A stretch of 64,000 bases of DNA from assembly GCA_965112155.1 (NCBI GenBank), contig OZ218103.1; one strand, written 5' to 3'. Positions 5,505 to 59,864 of this stretch are shown here, piece after piece. This DNA is from Podarcis liolepis. Taxonomy: Eukaryota. The notes beneath the pieces were generated by a model. It saw nothing but the letters and a program-made list of their open reading frames with translations. It had not been told where the DNA came from and made no database searches. The translations under genes were made by a program, and so were the position numbers. Each line of letters starts with the position of its first letter. Position 1 is the first letter of the stretch.

Positions 5505-5930
5505 TGTATCTGAAGAAGTGTGCATGCACACGAAAGCTCATACCAATAACAAACTTAGTTGGTCTCTAAGGTGCTACTAACGGGACGCGGGTGGCGCTGT
5601 GGGTTAAACCACAGAGTCTAGGACTTGCCGATTAGAAGGTCAGCGGTTCAAATCCCCATGATCGGGTGAGCTCCCGTTGCTCAGTTGCTGCTCCTGCCAA
5701 CCTAGTAGTTTGAAAGTGCATCAAAATGCAAGTAGATAAATAGGTACTGCTCCGGTGGGAAGGTAAACGGTGTTTCCGTGCACTGCTCTGGTTCGCCAGA
5801 AGCGGCTTAGTCATGCTGTACACTGGCTCCCTCGGCCAATAAAGCAAGATGAGCACCGCAAACCCAGAGTTGGTTACGACTGGACCTAATGGTCAGAGGT
5901 CCCTTTACCTTTAAGGTGCTACTGGAAGGA
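5505..5930 (+). mobile_element. Penelope-like element terminal fragment with hammerhead core, split by a Sauria SINE
   Basis: GTATCTGAAGAAGTGTGCATGCACACGAAAGCTCATACC...ttggtctctaaggtgctact resumes after the SINE as taaggtgctactggaagga; the uninterrupted form is at 15037-15330 (minus). Confidence 0.75.
5581..5911 (+). mobile_element. Sauria SINE
   Basis: gggacgcgggtggcgctgtggg head and cctttacctt tail; 12-bp TSD TAAGGTGCTACT at 5567-5578 and 5912-5923. Confidence 0.9.
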
Positions 5931-7149
5931 TTATTATTTTTTGTCCTTAATGTAAGTTAGTAGTATCTCCATTTTGCAGATATGGGGGCAGGAGGAGCTG
6001 AGAAACAATAAGCTTGGTGAAGGATTTCAAATGGCATGCTGGGTGCAAAAAGCAGACCTTTTAGCTTGTACTCCTAGGCATATTTACACAGAATTCAGCC
6101 CAGTTGTGGGCTTGTCTCCTAGGTGTGTGCATATGACTGCAGCATTAGTCACCATGTTAGACCAGCTCTAAAAACTCTGTTGACCCTTAAGCCAAGGCTG
6201 CACAGACTTCAGGTTTGTAGGATCTTCAGGCCGGTGGTAGGACTCTCCTCTGACTGCTCGGACCAATGTTTCTCTGCTGAATTATGACTTTGGATCCAAC
6301 ATGGTTGCCTGCAACAGTATGACTGATGGGCTGGAATCTGCGAGGGCTGGGAATTAATTTCTGCTGAGCAGAATTTTGCTGTGCATTATCTGTGATTCTA
6401 TGGTTCCCAATGCAGCTGAGCTTTGCGGCTTAAAGTGATAAGCAGAGTACAAAAAAATGTCCAGGTTAGTGTAGCTTTCTGATGGTGAAAGAAAACCTTG
6501 TGAACTGTAGCATGCCTGCCACACATAGTTAGCTTTCACTGCACATTTTGGAAAGCAGCAAAAACTTTGCTCCCTGGGATGTGGCAAAGCAACCGGAGTT
6601 GGTCTCCACACATTTAAACAGCTCCACCGCAAGCCAAAATAGGCTGGGCTTTCTTTGCGAAGCAACATGCCATTATGCTGCTGTGGCTTCGCTGTCTCTC
6701 CCAGCGCTCTTGGAGCATTCAGACAATTTCTTTGGCTCCCCAAGCCAAGCAAAGTCTGAATGGGAAGCCTCTTTATGCAGAACAGGAACTCCCAACACAA
6801 GGTCTTAGATTTCCCAGACTTCCAAAAGTTACAAATCAGAGGAAGTGCCATTTACAAGCTACCAAGAGGCCCAATTTCCCCATCAAAATTGTGTGTTTTT
6901 TTTAAAAAGAGATCATTCTTTAAATTTAGGACTTCTGTGGATGTACGAGGGGGGGGAGTGGCACTCATTAATTTTTTCATATTACCTGTACTGTCATCAG
7001 CACTCCCGTTGGCTTATGCCTATATGGGACTCTTATTCCCAGTTGAAGTAAGTGCCCTCCTTCTGAATTAGACTAAAATACCATCTAGACCAGCATTCTA
7101 CTTCCAGCAGTGAGCACATGTCCCAGGCATAAGGAAGATTCTTGCACGT

Positions 7150-8005: not shown

Positions 8006-8699
8006 AAGGCAGGAGTGGGGAACTTCAGAACCAGGAACCGAATAACTGAACTTCGGGACTCTTCCCCCTCATTGGCCCTGTTCTTTGCCCAGTGTCAGGG
8101 ACTGGCTGGCTGAAGGAATGGTGGGAGGCACCAGCCGGGGAACCCCAAGGGAAACCTCAGAGGAGGAAGGCTCAGAACCCAGGGGATTGGTGGTGGGGGG
8201 CCAGAGGGAAAAGATTGGGAAGAGGTACTGGATACTGAAGGACCAACAGGGGTATGTGAGCAGGAAGAGCCGGTGACAGGGGGCAGTCCAGATTCTGAGG
8301 CTGAAGCAGAGGAGGGGGGTCGAGAGGCTGTAGAAGAATCCAGGGTGTCTCCCTCTCCTGCTGAGACAAGCTCCCCTAGCCCCTGGTCTGCAAGAACATG
8401 CAGAATAACGAGGAGAGCAGAACAGAGGCCAGAGGTGTGCAGACACAGTTCAACACTGCTTGGGAAACATCCAGGAGGGGAGGAGCCTTAGAAAGGGTAG
8501 AAGGCCCCTTTGTCTGAAGAGGCACTTCTACATGTTCCGGTGGTCCTACGGGGTCACCACTTTGGACTCAAAACAGACATCATGCACACAGGCAGGGCTA
8601 GAGCCTTTGGGCTGGTCCGTGCGAGTAAAGGGAGATGAGTCAAAACCTACCCAATATTCATCCCCTTAATAGAATTATGCAAGAGAAAGCAGGATTTTT

Positions 8700-11164
8700 A
8701 TTTTTTTTAAGAAAGTACCAGTTTATTTTATCAAATCAGTGACAGTGAAAACAAAAGCAAATATACAAGAAATCTCATTTGAGCAATCAGGAGGCAGACA
8801 TGTTTTCCAAGCAATCGTTATAAAAATGTGTTAAGTATATAATCCTCCCCACTCAGCCCCCTACCCCAAACTAAACAATTCCAGAAGCCAAGTTTGAAAA
8901 GACTTGTGCTTGTGCCAAAGCAAAATCCATTCCACAGACTTAAAACTTTACCCATATGTTCATCAGAGCAGTCTAACATACACATGATCAAAAATCATCG
9001 CATGAATTCACTGCCAAAAGTGTTTTGTTTTTGTTTTTAAGGGAAGGCAAGCTGTACATTGTTCTGGTAACGTCTTATCAGAGAACCTTGCACAGGCCCC
9101 TTCTGTTCACGCAAGGACCACAAAGTTAAGTGTTAAGACTATGTCACGTTTTTAAAAGCTACAGCTCAAAGAATGCAAGTAGTTCAAGATTATGCCAGGA
9201 TCTGTGTGGTTAGGAGATGGCCTTGTGCTGCACAGTACCCGATTTCCTGCAAATTACACAGCCACCTCCCCACTGCACGGAGACCTCCCTTTGCTCTCAG
9301 AGGCGACAAGACTGTGCAGATGCAATCTGATCACATCGGAATCAAGTGGGGCCCTGGAAAGCAACTTCCGAAGAGACTCGCTTCCTAGGAAATCCAGCTT
9401 ACACCAGATACACTGCAAGTCACAGCAGCCGTAGTCCATGCAATGCAGCTTAAAGGTCCTTGTAATACCACTATCTACATCCCCAACCCAAAGATCTAGG
9501 ATCTAAGCCTAGCTCCGCTGCACCAGTTGCACACTTTCCTCCAAACGAGGGGTGAGGAATCTCAAGCCAGGATGCCAAACACAAACCTCTAGGTCTAGGA
9601 CACTACCTGCCTCTGAAGACTCTCCCCAGGCAACACACCTCTTCATATCCCCTTTCTGCCTGGCTAGAAGGTGTCCTTCAATTCTGAGAGTGCCTTTGGT
9701 TGCCTGGATGGAGCAGAGAAATTAGCAAAGGCAACATTTACATTCACTGGTTTACCCACTTTTGCTCCTGCTCACTACTAGCATGTGGTGGTCCTAGAAG
9801 TTTGCCCAGCTGGAAAGGTGGTCCTTAGCCCAAAACGAAAAAGAAAAGAGAAGAAACCACTTCCCCGCCCCCACTTTAATCTTTGCACAGCACAGACATC
9901 TTCGAAACTTTTGTACCATTCTGACATAACCACCAGTGGATGAAGATTCTCCCCAACAGGAACCAGCATTTACAGTCAGGTAGAACCAGCAGGTGGAGAA
10001 AAAGCTTGGCCCTGAAGATGCTCTTCTTTAGAAGAGGAACAGCAATGTGCCATTCGGAACGCTGAAAGCCAATAGCCTCAATTAAGAGCCCAAAAGAAAA
10101 ACAAATATGTATTTGGAGCCTCTTGGCACTTGCCTGAAGGGGGAATAGCAACTTTGCACAGAGACACCGCTCTCCGTACCAAACAGCTTCTGAAGTCTGT
10201 CTTCTGTCACCCCGTGGCATTAAAAGGGCAGAAGCAAACAGCAGCATGTGGCCGAATCATGCCCACACCCCCAGCAGTGAAATTCCATGCTGCCTGTGCA
10301 GTGAAGCTGGGTGTAAAAGCTAGACTCCAACCCACACAGCTGAATTGTTCAGCTGCCATTGAGTAGCAACACCGTATGTGAAGTAATGACTCCATCGAGA
10401 AGAGGAAGACATTTAGGGGAACTCTGCAAGGAAGAGAGCAGCCCAGCACCCCTTGCAGGAAGGCTGTACAAAACCTCAAGTGTGCATTTTACTGGAATAT
10501 ATATATTATAGAGCTCCACAGCACTGATAATAGGCTAAAAACACAAACCTCCAATTATATTTTAGTCATGTTCAAAGAAATCTGATTTTTGCAGACAGAC
10601 ATTAATTCTAGCAGAACTTATTGCCTTCGGGTATAGTACACAGAATCAAGCTTAAATAGTTTTCACAATCATTAGGAGTTTCATTATATTAGTGTTTTAC
10701 GTATAAAAAGAAGAGTTACCAAAAACAGAGCAGCCATCTTAGAAAGTATAAATAGCTCTATATAAAAACAACAACCCAGAAACTTATTTGCTTTTACTCC
10801 AGAAAATATATTTATAATTATATATAAATATTCTCTTCTCAACTGCCTAGAATAGCCTATGATATGAGCTTAGAGAGCTTTAACATACTGTAGCTGCTGC
10901 ATCGGTTCTGGCAATGAGCGATATAAAATGCCATTCATCTGGAGAGATGTCCAGCAAAGGGGGAAAAGGGGACTTAAAAAAAAAACAGAACTCATGAAAA
11001 TTACAAAATATATATACTTTTTAAAATTTCGGAATACTTTCTACAAACTTGTATAGGAAGGGAATTTTTCTTAGCGTCTTTTATTTAAGGAAACCCTCTT
11101 CTAAAAATAAAAAAGGTATTTCTTCAACTCAGCTCCATTTAAAAAGTGGGAGACATCCCCCCTG

Positions 11165-11836: not shown

Positions 11837-11991
11837 TTAGGCGTAGAATTCGTTTGTGGGTGCTTTCTTGTAGATCGGCTTCTTGCCCAGGTCGTAACTG
11901 CCCTCGTCCTTTTTCTTCATGCGATAGATCAGGAGGAGGATTGGGAAGACAGCAAACAGCAGCAACCCGACTGCCCCACCTGCAATAAGAG
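11837..11991 (-). CDS. SDC4: Syndecan-4 coding exon 5 (transmembrane and cytoplasmic domain, ending EFYA-stop)
   Basis: cttccAG acceptor; [28 protein letters not shown] is the SDC4-specific C1-V-C2 tail with the PDZ-binding EFYA; TAA stop at 11839-11837. Confidence 0.98.
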
Positions 11992-14444: not shown

Positions 14445-15036
14445 CTGCATAATGAGGAAAAAAACGTATTAATTCTCACAGAAATGAAGGAACTGCGATT
14501 TATACTGCCGTTCCTTCAGAAGACTTTGGCAAACTTGCATCAGACAGCTTATCGCCTCATCGTGCGCTCTCCTCTTTCACATCTCCACCCAACCCCCGAC
14601 TTCCCTGACCTAGTGGGTTTTGCTTCAGGCAGCCGGTTGCAAGGACTGCCACTGCAAGTCCACACACAGCGTGCTGTTTGACTTGTTTTCAAGAGAGGAG
14701 CTGCCCTTCTTTCAAGCACCCATTCCTTGAGGAGAACTGGCTCATGTAAAGTCCCAGATCTGCCCCAACTTGTTGCGTGCTAGTTTCGGAGCTTGTTTTT
14801 CCTCCGCAGCGTGCAACAAGTTGTCAGAGCAAGGCTGTGCTGGGAGTTTGGGAAAAGCAAAGGGGACAAAATGCGAGGCTGTTGTGCCATCAAAAGGCTG
14901 AAGTAATGAGAGGGGAGGGAGAAAGAAGAGCCGTTTCCGAAGAAAGGAGGAAAGCTTCTTCCTAAATACAGCCTTAATGGGGTAACAGAACCACAACAAT
15001 GTGGGAAATTTCCCTGGCCAGTGACCAGCTGCTGCA

Positions 15037-15330
15037 GTTACAGGTAGGTAGCTGTGTTGGTCTGCCATAGTCAAAATAAAAAAATTCCTTCCAGTAGCAC
15101 CTTAAAGACCAACTAAGTTAGTTCTTGGTATGAGCTTTTGTGTGCATGCACACTTCTTCAGATACACTGAAACAGAAGTTGCCAGATCCTTCTATATAGT
15201 GAGAAGGTGGGGAGGGGTATTACTCAGAAGGGTGGTGGGAATGGGTGATTGGCAGATAGCTGAGATGAGCCTGTTGACGACTTAACGACTGCAATAGGCC
15301 TTACAGGAAAAGGCAAGGGGTGAGAAGCTG
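15037..15330 (-). mobile_element. Penelope-like element 3'/terminal-repeat fragment in SDC4 intron 2
   Basis: Reverse complement of the 5505-5930 motif; its other end shares gggtgattg...cctgttgacga...aacgactgca...acaggaaaa with the GIY-YIG-bearing copy at 54150-54513. Confidence 0.75.
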
Positions 15331-33399: not shown

Positions 33400-34170
33400 A
33401 AAAGAGCCAGCAGAATTTCGCCCCAACGTTACAGAGGACAGGCAAGCAAGTCCCCCCCACCGCGCGCGCCCGCGGCAGCACCACCACCAGGAAAGGTTAA
33501 GGAGAAGTAAGCGCTCGTTCCAAAGTCCCGTCCCCAAAGCAATAGGGGGAGGGAGAGGGAATGGGGCGGTTTGCAGACTCTCCCTCTTCGCCCCTCGTGC
33601 AAAAGTTCGCAAGTTAGAGTGTGCGACGGAAGGGGGGGGGCGCGGCAGAACCAACACATTCCAATTATTCCCCGCTACCGACTCCCCCCCCCCCACCGTA
33701 CCCGCTTCGGAAAACACCAAGCCTTGCCTGCCTCCTTACAACCGCGCGCCCCCGCTACCAAATCAATGCCGGCAACTCCCCAGCGCCCGCCACCCCTTCT
33801 TCGCGGGACGCCCCGAAGCGACTCACCGACTCGGCGGCGGCAGCGCCCAGCAGCAAGAGCAGCAGGAGAGCGGGGGCGCACAGGCCGGCGGGGCGACTGG
33901 GCTTCATGGCGTCGTGGGGTCCGCGAAGGAAGGCGCAAGAGCAAAGGCTGGTCCGGTGGCGGCGGCGCGGTAACCAAGTGTCCCGTCCTTCCCCGCCCCG
34001 CCGCCGCTCAGCTTTCTTATACGCGGCCTTGCCCGGCCCTCCGGAGGAGGAGTCGCCGAAGCTGCGGCCTCCGCTTGCGAGGAGGAGGCGGCGGCGGTGA
34101 CGACGAGGGGAACTCCCCCCGGCTTGAACTCGGGCTTCTCCTAGGGCTTTTGCACTCAGTATCTCGGGGG
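33400..34170 (-). promoter_or_regulatory. SDC4: SDC4 CpG-island promoter with TATA-like box and NF-kB site
   Basis: Dense CpG/GC content; TATAAGA on the minus strand at 34021-34015; GC boxes; kB-type GGGGAACTCCCC at 34107-34118. Confidence 0.85.
33827..33907 (-). CDS. SDC4: Syndecan-4 coding exon 1 (signal peptide MKPSRPAGLCAPALLLLLLLGAAAAES)
   Basis: ATG at 33907-33905 in gccATGa context; 81 nt; hydrophobic signal peptide ending in AES as in other SDC4 proteins; GTGAGT donor at 33826-33821; phase 0 joins exon 2 (ES|VRETE). Confidence 0.95.
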
Positions 34171-35654: not shown

Positions 35655-36590
35655 TGCTCTAGAGGTGTATACCTAATTATAAAATAACCTTGCAATCTGC
35701 TTTACATTGGATCGACGACACAAGCGTTCGGTGTCTCTATAGGAGAGCATCGATCCCACATTAGGAATCAAATCATGGAAGCACTTCTAGTTGAGCACTT
35801 CGTGAAACATCATCATACAGATACAGACCTACTTTACACGGTCCTTTGGTTTAATCAGAGAGAATTTGGGATGATGAGAGATTATGTCAAATTACTACAC
35901 CAACAAGAAACTAGATTGATTTACCTATTTTAATCCCTACACTTGGGGGGGGGGTGTTGAAGACTGAATTCAACTTCAATTGTTTTATTTAAGTTTTCTG
36001 ACAAGATGGCTACTGTTTGTGTTCTCTGTGCTAAATTTTGGATACTGTACCTTTAAAATTTCGTAAAATTGTATGTGATTCAGTGCACCTGTGGGTAGCC
36101 TTTATGATGCTACTAGGGTTATGCCTACAGTATCAGCTTATTACACTATCAAGTGATTGCTGATCCATTGCTACTTGATGTACCCATAGGGACAATTTAT
36201 TCGGTATGTATTTATTATTTATTATTGTTTGCATATATACAGGTCTGTCATTTCAATTTCTGTATTGTATTTGAATTTAATGTATTTCAATTTCTATTAT
36301 TGTCAGCTGATGAAGAATCATCATTGAAACAGTTCGTTATCCGGAAAAACTCTTCTATGTTTGGCGCACCTATCACCGCATATTTGCAGGATTTTGAAAG
36401 TTGAAAGGCATTTTGCCTCCATCTCAGTGTTCCTTGATACTGACCGACTACGCCTCCTATTTTTGTTCATTGAACATTTATTTGACTCCTATTATTTGTG
36501 ACTCTCATATATTTTCTGTTTATGAATTGTGTATAAATACTTTGTTAACACATTAGCAGCCGCGTGTCGCTTGGGGTTGTTCTAGAGGAG
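35655..36590 (+). mobile_element. Penelope-like retroelement fragment (GIY-YIG endonuclease plus 3' region), copy 1
   Basis: Translation from 35664 gives GVYLIIK*PCNLLYIGSTTQAFGVSIGEHRSHIRNQIMEALLVEHF...LLHQQETRLIYLF, a degraded GIY-YIG domain; CTGATGA...GAAA at 36307-36329. Confidence 0.8.
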
Positions 36591-37276
36591 TATAAACAGA
36601 TTCCACTACTAGTGCCTTCTGAATTCTTTGTGCCTGCTATTGATCCAACCATTTTAGGAACATAAGAAGTTGCCTTATACAAAGTCAGGCCATTGGTCCA
36701 TCAAGCTCAGTATTATCTCGACTGATTGGCAGTGTCTCTCCAAGGATTCAGATAAGAGTTTTTCCCTAGCCCTATGTATAAGCATCAGAGATTGAAGCTG
36801 GGGGTTTCTGCATTCAAACGCATGAACCAGGTATGGCAGGGGGCTGCAAATGCTCCTCTTTGTGCATGAAAAGATTGCCAAAGGGTGTGCATGTTTGTCT
36901 GTTTTCTCCAAGGCCCATGGAGAGCAAAGTGTTCTGGGCTAGGACTGTTCCTGTAGATATGAACTTCGGGAGAAGAATGGGGGGAACCATGAGGTGTAGG
37001 GAAATATCTAGGTTTCCTTAGTGGGGCTGAGTAATAACAAGGTATGAATCAACATGCAGTTATTGCGTGCAAGGTGGCAACCCCAGTGCAGAAGCCACCA
37101 CAAAGGGTTCAAACGCAATACAAGCCTTGTTTCCTTTCTGCCTAGCAGTTTCTTTTCAAGACAAGTTAACTAAGTGATTTAGCCATTTCAGTCTCTACAG
37201 AAGCAGTCTTAGGCAGCAGATGGGCAAGAGGAAGCACCCTGTCTACCCCCATTGCTTCTGCTGCCACCAGGAGACA

Positions 37277-38074
37277 CCTTTAGTTGAGCACTTTGTAAAA
37301 CAACATCATGCAGATACAGACCTACTTTACACAGTCCTATGGGTTAATCAGAGAAAATTTGGGATGAGGGGATCATGTCAAATTACTGCACTAACAAGAA
37401 ACCAGACTTATTTACCTATTTAAATCTCTGCACCCAGGGGGTTTGAATACTGAATTAGATTTCAATTGTTTTATTTAAGTTCTTTGATAAGATGGCTACT
37501 GTTTGTGTTCTGTTTGCTAGATGTTGGGTACTGTAGCTTTAAATTTCCTGAAATTATATGTGATTCATTGCACCCGTGGATAGCCTTTATAATGCTACAC
37601 TTTTAAGTGATTGCTGATCCATGGCTATTTGATGTACCTTTGGGGACAATTAATTTGGTATGTGTTTATTATTGGTTGTTCATATGCAGGCCTGTCATTT
37701 CAATATCTGTATTGCATTTGAATGTAATATATTTCATATCATTGCGAGCCGATGAAGAATTATCATTGAAACAGTTCATTATCCTAGAAGAACTGTTCTG
37801 TTTGCAGCTGTGCTCAGAGTACCCTACTACTATGTTTGGAGCACCTATCTAGGATATTGACTGTGGAAAGGCTTTTTGCCTCCATATTAGTGATCTTGGA
37901 CAGTGACTTACCACGCCTACTATTCTTGTTTATGGAACATTTATTTGTTACCTATAATTTGTGACTCCATGCCCATATTATACATCTGTTTATGAATTTG
38001 TGAAACAGTATAATATTATAAAGATTTTGTTAGTATTTAGTAGCCGATGTGTTGCTTGTTGTTGTTTTAGAGCA
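37277..38074 (+). mobile_element. Penelope-like retroelement fragment, copy 2 (more 5'-truncated)
   Basis: Colinear and clearly similar to 35788-36590 (LVEHFVKQHHADTDLLYTVLW...); flanked by a degenerate 30-bp direct repeat. Confidence 0.8.
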
Positions 38075-50900: not shown

Positions 50901-53056
50901 GCCCAAGGTCACCCAGTGAGATTCATGGCTGAGTGAGGAACTGGTCTCCCAAGTCCTAGTCCATCACTCCAACCACTATCCCATAAAGATGACAGCAGTG
51001 GCCAGTGAAGCAAGACACAGTTTCTGCATTTTACCTGGACATGGCAGGTGTAGGGAGGGGGAGAACCATGTACAGCTACTTGGGGGAAAGGTGGAATGTT
51101 GCTGTTGTTTCCAGATCATTTACAGGAGGGAGGACAAAACAAGGATTCATGGAATTTTGTAATATTCTTTGCCATTTAGTGGATTTTTATATGACTGGTT
51201 CAGATAATGTTTATTATCATACTATAAGTTTTCATGGAGGTCCCTTTTGGGAACAAAGGACAAGGAATAAATCTGTGAATACAAAATGCTGAATGGTTAA
51301 GAATCTTTTTTAAAAAAAGCGCACAGCTCCAGGATACTGGAAGTGTTAGAAACCATACTATGGAGGAAAAAGCAGGCCATTGTGCTACATGCTCTGTGTG
51401 ATGAAATGCCAACATTTCCTGCAGACTAAGCTGCAAACATACATGAATCACATTGACAAAAATGTGCTCTTGATAAACAGCCTTCATTTTGGATTTCCCA
51501 AGGCTTGCACTTCCTTAAGCCATTCCGGATTTCAACTAGAGTTCTGAACTTCGTGTGAACCAAGGCTGACCACACCTTAACCACAGAGCCTATGGTCCTG
51601 CAGGTGGGTCATATGCCCACAGTCTGCTTCCAATGACACCATGTAACCACAATGGGAAAATGGCATATATGTGGTCATTATGTTTATACTGGTTGCTGGA
51701 AACCACAGGAGGGAAAAGTGCTCTTGAGCTCAGGTCCTGCTTGTGTGCTTCCCACAGGCATGTGGTTTGCCACTGTGAGAACAGGATACTAGAGTAGACG
51801 GGTCATTGGCCTGATCCAGCCGTCTACCAAAAGGTACTGTACAAAAGAGGAATTATTCCCAATTATTCTTTCAGACCGCTATGACTCAAGAAAACATATA
51901 ACTCTACAATTCATGGGCCTCTTGCACATCGTGTGCATTTTTTAGTCCTATGTTCTTATGTCAGATTGTTTGTCCATGTAGCTCAGGACTATTTTGACCT
52001 TCAGTGGCTCTCCAGGATTTCTGGCAGTGGGACTTCTCATCACCCGTTTCCTCAAGCAAGACCTGCCCTACCACTGGGCAGAGTGAGCTGGCAGGTACCG
52101 GTTGGGAGAGGCAGGAAGTGTTGGCAAGAGGTTGTAGGACAGAGCTGTATGCTTGTGCACCCTGCGTGCCTTAAGATAACCTGGAGGAAGATGCTGGCCC
52201 ATCACCAAGAGACAATTGCCAGTCTGGTCAAATTCCATAATGGAATGGAAAGGGGGTGATTCCTTGTTCTTCTCCTCATTGGGCCACAGAACCTGTTCTA
52301 AGGTTCTTCAATGGAAAATGCAGGCGCTGAATCTTAGCGCGTGCCCTGCCACGGAATTACGGTCTGTCTCACAATCAGCCTCTAGATGCCTGGGATAAAT
52401 GGGATAAAGCCTTTTGAATTAGAGCAGACGCCACAACTTCTGGTGGCTTGACCCATGATTTAAATTACTTCAGCTCTGGCAATAGGGCTGGATTAAGACA
52501 TGCTCAGAGCAAGCCCTAAGCAATGCCAAGTTTAAGAGGCCCCACTGCATTAAGCCCCCTCCCCCATGTATTATTCTAATGAAAATAGAATAAATTTGCA
52601 TATATGCTAGTACATACACAATGATGCAACTATCTTACTAGTGGTACTTTTGAACTTAAGAGGCCACTCATAATCTGAGGCCCTAAACTGTAGTTTGTGC
52701 ATAAATCTGACACTAACTGGCAAAGTAAATGCAAGATCAGTACAGAGCAGAAGGTGGAATTATCTTATTTGAAAGTCTTCAAAGAAAGGATAAACAACAA
52801 CATTAGCAGTCTGATCCTGTGCATCTTCATTCAGAAGTCCATCCCGCAGGCAGCCGCACGTAGAACATGCATGAGGTTACTTTTTCAGATGTGTCAGTCT
52901 GTGACTACCTATCTGCCAAAGGAAAGAGGAACGAGAAACAATTATTAAGGCCCAACACATTATGAGTCACAGCACTGAAAATCAAATCTCATCAAGGAGC
53001 CGCTAAAACAATCTTGCTCAATATGGTTCAGACTGCATACAGTTAACATAAAAAAA

Positions 53057-53838
53057 TTTATACTACATTTTTTTAGATTTGCCTTGAGAGAGTCTTTAAA
53101 CCTCGTTTGTTGACCACAAGCATTACTCTTTCCATTTTTAAGTTTGGAATAGAGGCATCTGAATAAAGCTGATGTTGAAGAATCATTGCTTTGACACTTG
53201 TGATCTTTGCTTCTTCCAGTACACTGACATTAGTTCGCCTGTATTCCCAAGTGATAGGTACATTTTTTTGGAGACATCATTGATGGAATCTTTTGAGGAG
53301 TTGGAGATGGCGTTTATAAGTAGTCCATGTTTCACAAGCATACAGTAAGGTTGGTAGTACAATAGCTTTGTAAAAAAGTATTTTGGTTTCCCTGCGATTA
53401 TCCCAGTCCTCAAAAACTCTTTACTTCATTTGGGAAAAAGCTGCACTCGCCAAGCTCAGGCGATGCTGGATTTCAGCATCATTGTCGACCCTTGTGGAAA
53501 GGTAACTCTCCTGTGGATTCCAGCAACCGTTATTGTACTACCAACCTTACTGTATGCTTGTGAAACATGGACTACTTATAAACGCCATCTCCAACTCCTC
53601 AAAAGATTCCATCAATGATGTCTCCAAAAAAATGTACCTATCACTTGGGAATACAGGCGAACTAATGTCAGTGTACTGGAAGAAGCAAAGATCACAAGTG
53701 TCAAAGCAATGATTCTTCAACATCAGCTTTATTCAGATGCCTCTATTCCAAACTTAAAAATGGAAAGAGTAATGCTTGTGGTCAACAAACGAGGTTTAAA
53801 GACTCTCTCAAGGCAAATCTAAAAAAATGTAGTATAAA
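53057..53838. repeat. Perfect long inverted repeat: 308-bp arms (53057-53364, 53531-53838) and 166-bp spacer
   Basis: Comparing the arms by eye, arm 1 is the exact reverse complement of arm 2. Confidence 0.93.
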
Positions 53839-54137
53839 CACCAACAATTGGGAAACACTGGCCTGCAAGCGCTCCAACTGAAGAACAGCCTTTACCAAAG
53901 GTGTCATGGGCTTTGAAAACACTCAGACTCAGGATGAAAGGTAGAAACGTGCTAAGAAGGTGGCATGTTTGGCAAACCTTCACCATGATCAACTCCCACC
54001 CGGAAACCTATGTCCCCACTGTAGAAGGATGCGTGGATCTAGAATTGGCCTCCACAGTCACTTATGGACTAACCATTAAGACCATGTTCATAGAAGACAA
54101 TCTTACTTGGCTACGAGTGATCACCAAAGAAGAAGAA
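53531..54137 (+). mobile_element. RTE-clade LINE 3' fragment (decayed)
   Basis: IVLPTLLYACETWTTYKRHLQLLKRFHQ* matches the RTE-type RT C-terminus (LLYGCETW motif); downstream C-P-H-C zinc-finger-like remnant and (GAA)n tail. Confidence 0.85.
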
Positions 54138-54149
54138 AGATCTCTCAGA

Positions 54150-54513
54150 TGGGTGATTGACTCAGTGGGTATATGGTAAACCTGTTGACGATTGTTAACG
54201 ACTGCAGTTAGTTCTACAGGAAAAAGCAAGGGATAGGATTAGCATATGTAATGAGACAGGAATCCAATATCTCTATTAAGACCAGGTCTCTCCATAGTTT
54301 TCACTTTAGTGATGTTATAATTCAGCAACTTCTCTTTCAAGTCTGTTTCTGAAATTCTTTTATATTAAGACAGCTGCTTTGAGATCCTGTACTGAATGTC
54401 CTGGGAGATTGAAGTGTTCTCCTACTGGCTCCTCTGTCTTGTGATTCCGGATGTCAAATTTATGTCCATTTATCCTTTGGCATAGGGTTTGGCCTGTTTA
54501 TCCAATATACAGA
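54150..54513 (-). mobile_element. Penelope-like element GIY-YIG fragment
   Basis: Minus-strand translation LYIG*TGQTLCQRINGHKFDIRNHKTEEPVGEHFNLPGHSVQDLKAAVL...PGLNRDIGFLSHY. Confidence 0.85.
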
Positions 54514-59702: not shown

Positions 59703-59864
59703 ATGGCTCCACAGTTCCGTAGTTATGTTTGGGATCCTGCTCTTATCCTTTCCCAGATTACCCTCATGCAGGCAATTTACTATAGCTCGCTTGGGCTCTG
59801 GTTGGCTGTGGTGGACAGCCTAGTTCACAACAGCCCGTCCCTTGATCAGATTTTCAACTACGAG
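59703..59864 (+). CDS. SYS1: SYS1 Golgi trafficking protein, first coding exon (MAPQFRSYVWDPALILSQI...SPSLDQIFNYE)
   Basis: FRSYVWDP.LILSQI.LMQ.YY.SLGLWL is the SYS1 N-terminus; 162 nt; GAG|GTAGGA donor. Confidence 0.96.

Follow-up and report, generated by a model that had tools for sequence, protein, structure and literature searches.

A perfect 308-bp inverted repeat in an old RTE copy of Podarcis liolepis as the likely scar of a recent replication template switch

The stretch of Podarcis liolepis DNA analyzed in the current work (64,000 nucleotides, hereafter the window, corresponding to G000:C6:23622001-23686000 in G000, an assembly of 1.57 Gb in 290 contigs) contains two perfectly complementary sequences of 308 nt, arranged as an inverted repeat within the remnant of a transposable element which we take to be of the RTE type, the translation of the arms presumably representing the end of its reverse transcriptase. 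This perfect inverted repeat is likely to be the scar of one recent template switch that occurred during replication of an old, dead RTE copy, and it is probably neutral.

Results

Structure of the inverted repeat

The two arms match as reverse complements at 308 of 308 positions, neither end of the match being extendable, and they enclose a spacer of 166 nt (Table 1); this pair is the sole perfect long inverted repeat found in the window. The same dimensions had been given in the preliminary description of this locus, which also stated that the 3' tail is continuous with arm 2 and that the spacer consists mostly of upstream RTE sequence running on, on the minus strand, from arm 1; this applies to 143 of the 166 bases. 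When the spacer is read on the minus strand, RTE homology begins 24 nt into it, and the 23 nt lacking such homology adjoin 65 further unmatched letters in contigs of related organisms (X4, X5 and X7, see below). Resemblance of these 23 nt to a repeat at 51691 had made them a candidate SINE piece, which was rejected considering that the adjoining ancestral letters match nothing in G000; plain flank is the preferred interpretation of the 23 nt.

At the inner junction exactly 4 letters are shared, a microhomology of at least this length having a chance of 0.019 in a local simulation. At the outer junction, the seven-A filler is the reverse complement of a T7 run at 53068-53074, and a 9-bp local hairpin (-4.1 kcal/mol) is predicted for the region of the filler; a snap-back templated insertion is suggested, a homopolymer being weak evidence for it. 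A piece of the left flank extending to this junction (52700-53060) is single-copy in G000. Beyond arm 2, the loose ends of other RTE copies cluster at 54133-54137, and no target-site duplication of at least 8 nt was found around the whole unit in the stretches compared.

Table 1. Coordinates of the inverted repeat, its surroundings and other features considered (positions of the window unless preceded by a locus name; gene names as presumed in the text)
Feature	Position	Strand	Remarks
Left flank	52300..53049		common to ancestral alleles; 53049 is their last matching base and switch point 1
Seven-A filler, outer junction	53050..53056	+	without match in ancestral contigs; present in X3
Arm 1, new inverted copy of RTE segment X	53057..53364	-	outer junction in X3 contig, up to 53085
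Spacer, RTE part (5' end of truncated element)	53365..53507	-	inverted relative to ancestral layout
Spacer end, 23 nt of original 5' genomic flank of the element	53508..53530	-	inverted; without RTE homology
Inner-junction microhomology, 4 nt TATT (AATA in ancestral flank)	53531..53534	+	X4, X5 and X7 contigs fit to 53534, then stop
Arm 2, segment X oriented as in the ancestor, decayed end of the RTE reverse transcriptase	53531..53838	+	translation, homology
RTE 3' end and GAA tail	53839..54137	+	runs on from arm 2
Likely first coding exon of syndecan	33827..33907	-	read by eye; points away from the repeat
SYS1 first coding exon	59703..59864	+	points away from the repeat
Young palindrome family, copies in the window	15035-15330, 5505-5578, 5909-5942		
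Young palindrome family, other loci	L083:6543-6728, L083:392-551, L071:7629-7813, L106:5169-5552, L022:2505-2607, L157:2110-2577		

Decay of the RTE copy and relative age of the arms

As had been described, both arms carry the same lesions: an in-frame stop (TGA) follows RFHQ in the translation of each, and each lacks 43 nt near 53729-53742. The most plausible reading of the missing 43 nt is a pair of deletions (17 and about 26 nt), neither junction of which was found in any other fetched locus, including 55 other RTE copies. An apparent deletion hotspot, consisting of a 60-nt zone (matching 53715-53745 of the window) in which many of the copies L002-L030 have differing deletions, was dismissed as an effect of ascertainment: with a query devoid of the zone, only 1 of 28 copies was found to be deleted there.

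The closest other copy in G000, this being the best among 40 scored of 6761 candidates, is 87% identical over 608 nt. Each arm departs from the majority letter of 28 other copies in 25 of 295 columns (4 of these being misaligned at deletions), and the RTE part of the spacer does so in 11 of 91, while the tail at 53839-54137 differs from the majority of other copies in 23 of 275 columns; the distance of the arms from the family majority (7-8.5%) is similar to that of the tail. At about 8% from its family, the RTE copy is old. Arms dating from the insertion would be expected to be about 15% apart, under which expectation the probability of 0 differences in 308 positions is approximately 1e-22, and the 95% upper bound on the observed divergence is 1%. 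The duplication is therefore younger than the decay of the element, which was one of the two possibilities raised in the preliminary description. A tendency of the RTE family to form inverted repeats was considered and rejected: none of the inverted repeats in 55 other RTE loci is RTE-derived, those present having come from other repeats.

The ancestral allele in related organisms

Contigs of 6 out of 14 DNA-like sequencing runs (X1, X3, X4, X5, X7 and X9) were used for comparison, the highest share of the window's words in any listed run being 0.64 and the window's own sample not being among these runs. At the outer end of the repeat, contigs of X5, X7 and X9 (three of the six runs) match the window up to 53049 and then continue with 94, 94 and 92 other letters, respectively. 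At the inner end, contigs of X4, X5 and X7 (again three of six) match the spacer with 0-1 differences up to 53534, beyond which 65 other letters follow; the contig of X5 spans from 53534 to 53354, thus passing through the spacer into segment X, with 1 difference in 181 nt.

These contigs show an ancestral layout consisting of the left flank, a segment named D, AATA, the 23-nt flank, the RTE 5' part, X (starting with TATT) and the tail, this layout being pieced together from separate contigs none of which spans D, so that the length of D is a minimum. Judging from these alignments, the ancestral state is a single 5'-truncated RTE copy. Segment D would measure at least approximately 129 nt if two of the contigs abut with an overlap of 30 letters. 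Its last 30 nt have no match in the window, nor any in G000 at up to 2 mismatches, and D has therefore been lost from the window's allele, in which the order is flank, A7, reversed X, reversed 5' part, reversed 23-nt flank, X and tail.

Comparison to the orthologous locus in relatives, as proposed in the preliminary description, therefore reveals a single plain copy in four related organisms, the repeat being absent at its inner end in X4, X5 and X7 and at its outer end in X9 (the left flank of X4 is without cover at 98%). Because these four organisms are without it, the repeat is not ancient.

The derived allele in other runs

A single contig of X3 (organism B), matching 52300-53085 up to the contig's own end, crosses the A7 filler and 29 nt of arm 1 with an exact match, its overlap on the arm side (29 letters) being 2 short of the 31-letter bridging rule. 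Considering this exact match, and that the three ancestral contigs depart at 53049, the contig was counted as moderately strong support for the outer junction outside the window's assembly. Its stop at 53085 would be expected, since its 31-letter words at this position become common to thousands of RTE copies.

The inner junction is seen in none of the six runs and is known from the assembly, X1 and X3 being without cover at 53485-53526 (at 98%); holes in contig cover also occur in X4 and X5, so that such gaps are uninformative. Similarly, the assembly is the source for the presence of both junctions in cis (the outer one also being found in X3) and for the orientation of the spacer, which short-read contigs cannot show. 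In these contigs the two arms are collapsed into one and swamped by the other RTE copies. In X1, which possesses the closest flank (0 differences in 727 nt), neither the ancestral nor the derived allele is visible: its contig ends at 53026 without a loose end, and there is no cover at 53027-53056 or at 53485-53526. The gaps at the junctions in X1 and X3 could be due to hairpin-related dropout, to filtering or to a different allele. A 7-nt insertion at 52627 and an A>C substitution at 52653 are present in X3, X7 and X9, and not in X1; the window and X1 have derived flank states in common.

Age of the event

Flanking sequences differ from the window at 4 of 786 bases in X3, 8 of 750 in X7 and 9 of 750 in X9 (0.5-1.2%). 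If the event is placed between the split from X3 and the splits from X7 and X9, the arms would be expected to differ at 1.6 to 3.7 positions, and the probability of observing none is 0.21 at the age of the X3 split (1.6 differences expected), falling to 0.02-0.04 at that of the X7/X9 splits (1.1-1.2%). Perfect arms would need no conversion at the young end of this range and would be mildly surprising at its old end, although introgression or recombination could blur these bounds. The perfect match of the arms is best explained by the recent origin of the copy, rather than by anything maintaining their identity.

Rarity and stability

Arms of at least 100 nt with at least 99% identity and a spacer of at most 2 kb were found in none of 95 sampled 10-kb stretches (949,800 bases; 95 of 100 requested stretches existed), these being scanned 10 kb at a time so that repeats crossing a border were missed. 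The near-perfect cases in the sample comprise palindromes of one young repeat family, separate short-repeat pairs at 87-90% and one pair at 97%, 1.9 kb apart. The structure studied here is uncommon, and is not due to chance.

Members of the young family, also present in the window (Table 1), are palindromes or short-spaced inverted repeats at 90-99%, whose centre differs per copy, and which presumably carry a hammerhead-like motif. They likely represent pLTR ends of Penelope-like elements accompanied by a 5'-truncated copy in inverted orientation, an arrangement described in PMC8557442 and PMC4209133. Another inverted pair (L103:6605-7202 and 8573-8881; 94-97% over 168 + 156 nt), one arm of which is split by a short repeat, possibly corresponds to the terminal inverted repeats of a DNA transposon.

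The preliminary description also invoked cruciform extrusion and purging, which seems overstated for a spacer of 166 nt: eukaryotic forks stall at inverted Alus with a 12-bp spacer and not with a 52-bp spacer, according to a passage of a review (PMC7999016), and the 166-nt spacer would thus be far less fragile than was assumed.

Gene context

Two genes, both pointing away, border the intergenic repeat, which is located upstream of each (by 4.4 kb and 19 kb) and, as read, lies in neither primary transcript. The plus-strand gene, which we take to be SYS1 (a name also given in the preliminary description), has a GC-rich promoter region at about 58.2-58.6 kb. The minus-strand gene probably encodes a syndecan, presumably SDC4, with its C-terminal exon near 11914. 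Rfam yielded 0 matches in the window. Elsewhere in the window, an intergenic direct repeat of about 800 nt (35782-36587 and 37275-38072) shows 74% identity, its copies being 690 nt apart. Just past the RTE tail, a decayed reading frame was noticed by eye on the minus strand (about 54250-54500), which we presume to resemble the endonuclease (GIY-YIG) end of Penelope.

Discussion

Under the favoured reading, a template switch, the nascent strand, on completing its copy of X (ending in AATA), would have moved onto the other parental strand by way of the TATT located 166 nt ahead, and would then have copied 474 nt backwards, 23 of these being non-RTE flank, before stopping. A short filler would have been gained at the outer junction, perhaps by a second snap-back, and the strand would have been joined to the left flank with loss of D. 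When the other strand is considered, the microhomology would prime the first switch, the last step being a joining with filler and deletion. The sequence from 53057 to 53534 is indeed the reverse complement of nearby ancestral flank and RTE, the switch points occur along the ancestral allele in the order 1, 3, 4, 2 (the layout being derived from separate contigs), and the resulting structure combines an inverted repeat with inversion of its spacer, as the 1-3-4-2 class requires (the orientation being taken from the assembly). According to PMC5453318, this order, which accounts for 23% of human-chimp events, generates an inverted repeat with inverted spacer and depends on a switch between strands, while the 474 nt copied fall within the range of tens to hundreds of bases, in the wording of 10.1101/2021.11.26.470150. 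Of the origins listed in the preliminary description, a recent fold-back or template-switch duplication is consequently the one supported by the single ancestral copy, the inner microhomology and the switch-point order.

The event resembles four-point template switches in that a nearby fragment is copied as its reverse complement, in the switch-point order, in the inverted spacer and in the local deletion. It departs from them by the 7-nt filler at one junction, by its position inside a LINE remnant, a sequence masked in the 2017 study, and by its length, the median in the published excerpts being 12 nt and the maximum 128 (PMC7954356) or 318 (10.1101/2021.11.26.470150). That 474 nt exceeds the longest events of these studies speaks against a template switch, as does the spacing of 166 nt, which is larger than the 40-80 bp preferred in yeast, where, as far as the cited part of PMC10766183 goes, leading-to-lagging switches are documented at interrupted inverted repeats of 2-14 bp. 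Switching at such 2-14 bp interrupted inverted repeats, on the scale of an Okazaki fragment, is also a feature of ODIRA (PMC10766183) and of small inverted triplications (excerpted from PMC13334657), but these involve three copies in direct-inverted-direct order with a spacing of 40-80 or about 30, whereas two copies and a deletion are present here; inverted triplication was rejected because there are only two copies. The repeat is an unusually long and well-polarised example of a known mutational class.

A break-induced fold-back is an unlikely alternative source of the same sequence: after a break in D and resection, the 3' end would fold back using the 4-nt inverted microhomology of the inner junction, 308 nt would be synthesised and end-joining with filler would follow, and the two new arms would at a later time recombine to flip the spacer. 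As in the fold-back inverted duplications of Hermetz 2014 (PMC3907307, in part), a single-copy spacer is bounded by a short inverted microhomology, and as in the yeast fold-back insertions of Yu 2024 (PMC11724301, in part), one end is microhomology-primed and the other end-joined; the filler and the adjacent deletion at the outer junction agree with this as well. The insertions in the cited text of PMC11724301 are, however, mostly 5-34 bp, the size observed here falling between these and the large human cases. Furthermore, the direct product of a fold-back leaves the spacer in its ancestral orientation, whereas the assembly shows it inverted, so that a second event (a possible later flip) is needed; in addition, no terminal deletion or dicentric stage needs to be assumed at this locus. 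Insertion by twin priming of an RTE RNA that was already defective, one of the origins put forward previously, is scarcely credible. Twin priming results in an inverted 5' part beside a direct 3' part with a tail, and the overall shape at the locus is similar, but at this site the relatives possess the decayed copy in uninverted form (as in the 181 nt spanned by X5), no sibling with these deletions exists among 55 other RTE copies, and the structure post-dates insertion, duplicates 308 nt and takes in 23 nt of inverted genomic flank. The ancestral contigs and this inverted flank refute twin priming.

The duplication could also be older than it appears, its arms having been homogenised by recurrent conversion or template switching, with a spacer able to flip; this is very unlikely. 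The outer junction is common to X3, another organism, and perfect identity is improbable at the upper age bound (0.02-0.04); moreover, template switching that homogenises arms and inverts spacers is described in yeast (PMC8604942), and the maintenance of long inverted repeats is described in nematodes (PMC1803023). Against it stands the lower age bound, where 1.6 differences are expected and their absence has a probability of 0.21, and where the arm-to-arm conversion proposed earlier is not needed. An assembly artefact, in which the true allele has the outer junction and no second copy of X, is held to be very improbable too: the inner junction is unseen in all six runs and the listed runs exclude the window's own sample, but the outer junction stands in the independent run X3, the assembly is chromosome-scale, the inner junction lands exactly on a microhomology that is visible only in ancestral alleles, and mixing of haplotypes would not create it, since it is absent from a plain inversion and from the ancestral allele alike. 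Mis-assembly, suggested as an option in the preliminary description, thus loses ground because another organism's contig carries the outer junction. Finally, selection of the repeat as a source of dsRNA (an ADAR or endo-siRNA substrate) through divergent transcription from the SYS1 promoter is highly improbable. For a transcript across the repeat, the predicted fold is a 308-bp stem of about -399 kcal/mol (using DNA parameters), and new miRNA hairpins have arisen by template switches (PMC10710096, in part); on the other hand, the repeat is intergenic with both neighbouring genes facing away, and a conserved role is disfavoured by the lack of the repeat in four related organisms.

An extended version of the template switch, in which the 474-nt switch with its snap-back filler is common to two species, the spacer is still flipping and the arms are kept identical by recurrent arm-to-arm copying, possibly at a nascent hairpin-RNA locus, is quite unlikely. 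If true, this reading would make the locus a natural, polarised vertebrate test case for ongoing concerted evolution in a newly formed inverted repeat, and the locus would carry greater weight if both orientations of the spacer, or concerted arm changes between species, occur. The data suggest that a perfect 308-bp repeat with a 166-nt spacer is able to persist across about 0.5% sequence divergence. As a likely template switch, the locus offers a clean and polarised case from the long tail of local template switching, situated between the catalogued short events and the large FoSTeS/MMBIR rearrangements, with both the ancestral allele and the priming microhomology being visible in relatives.
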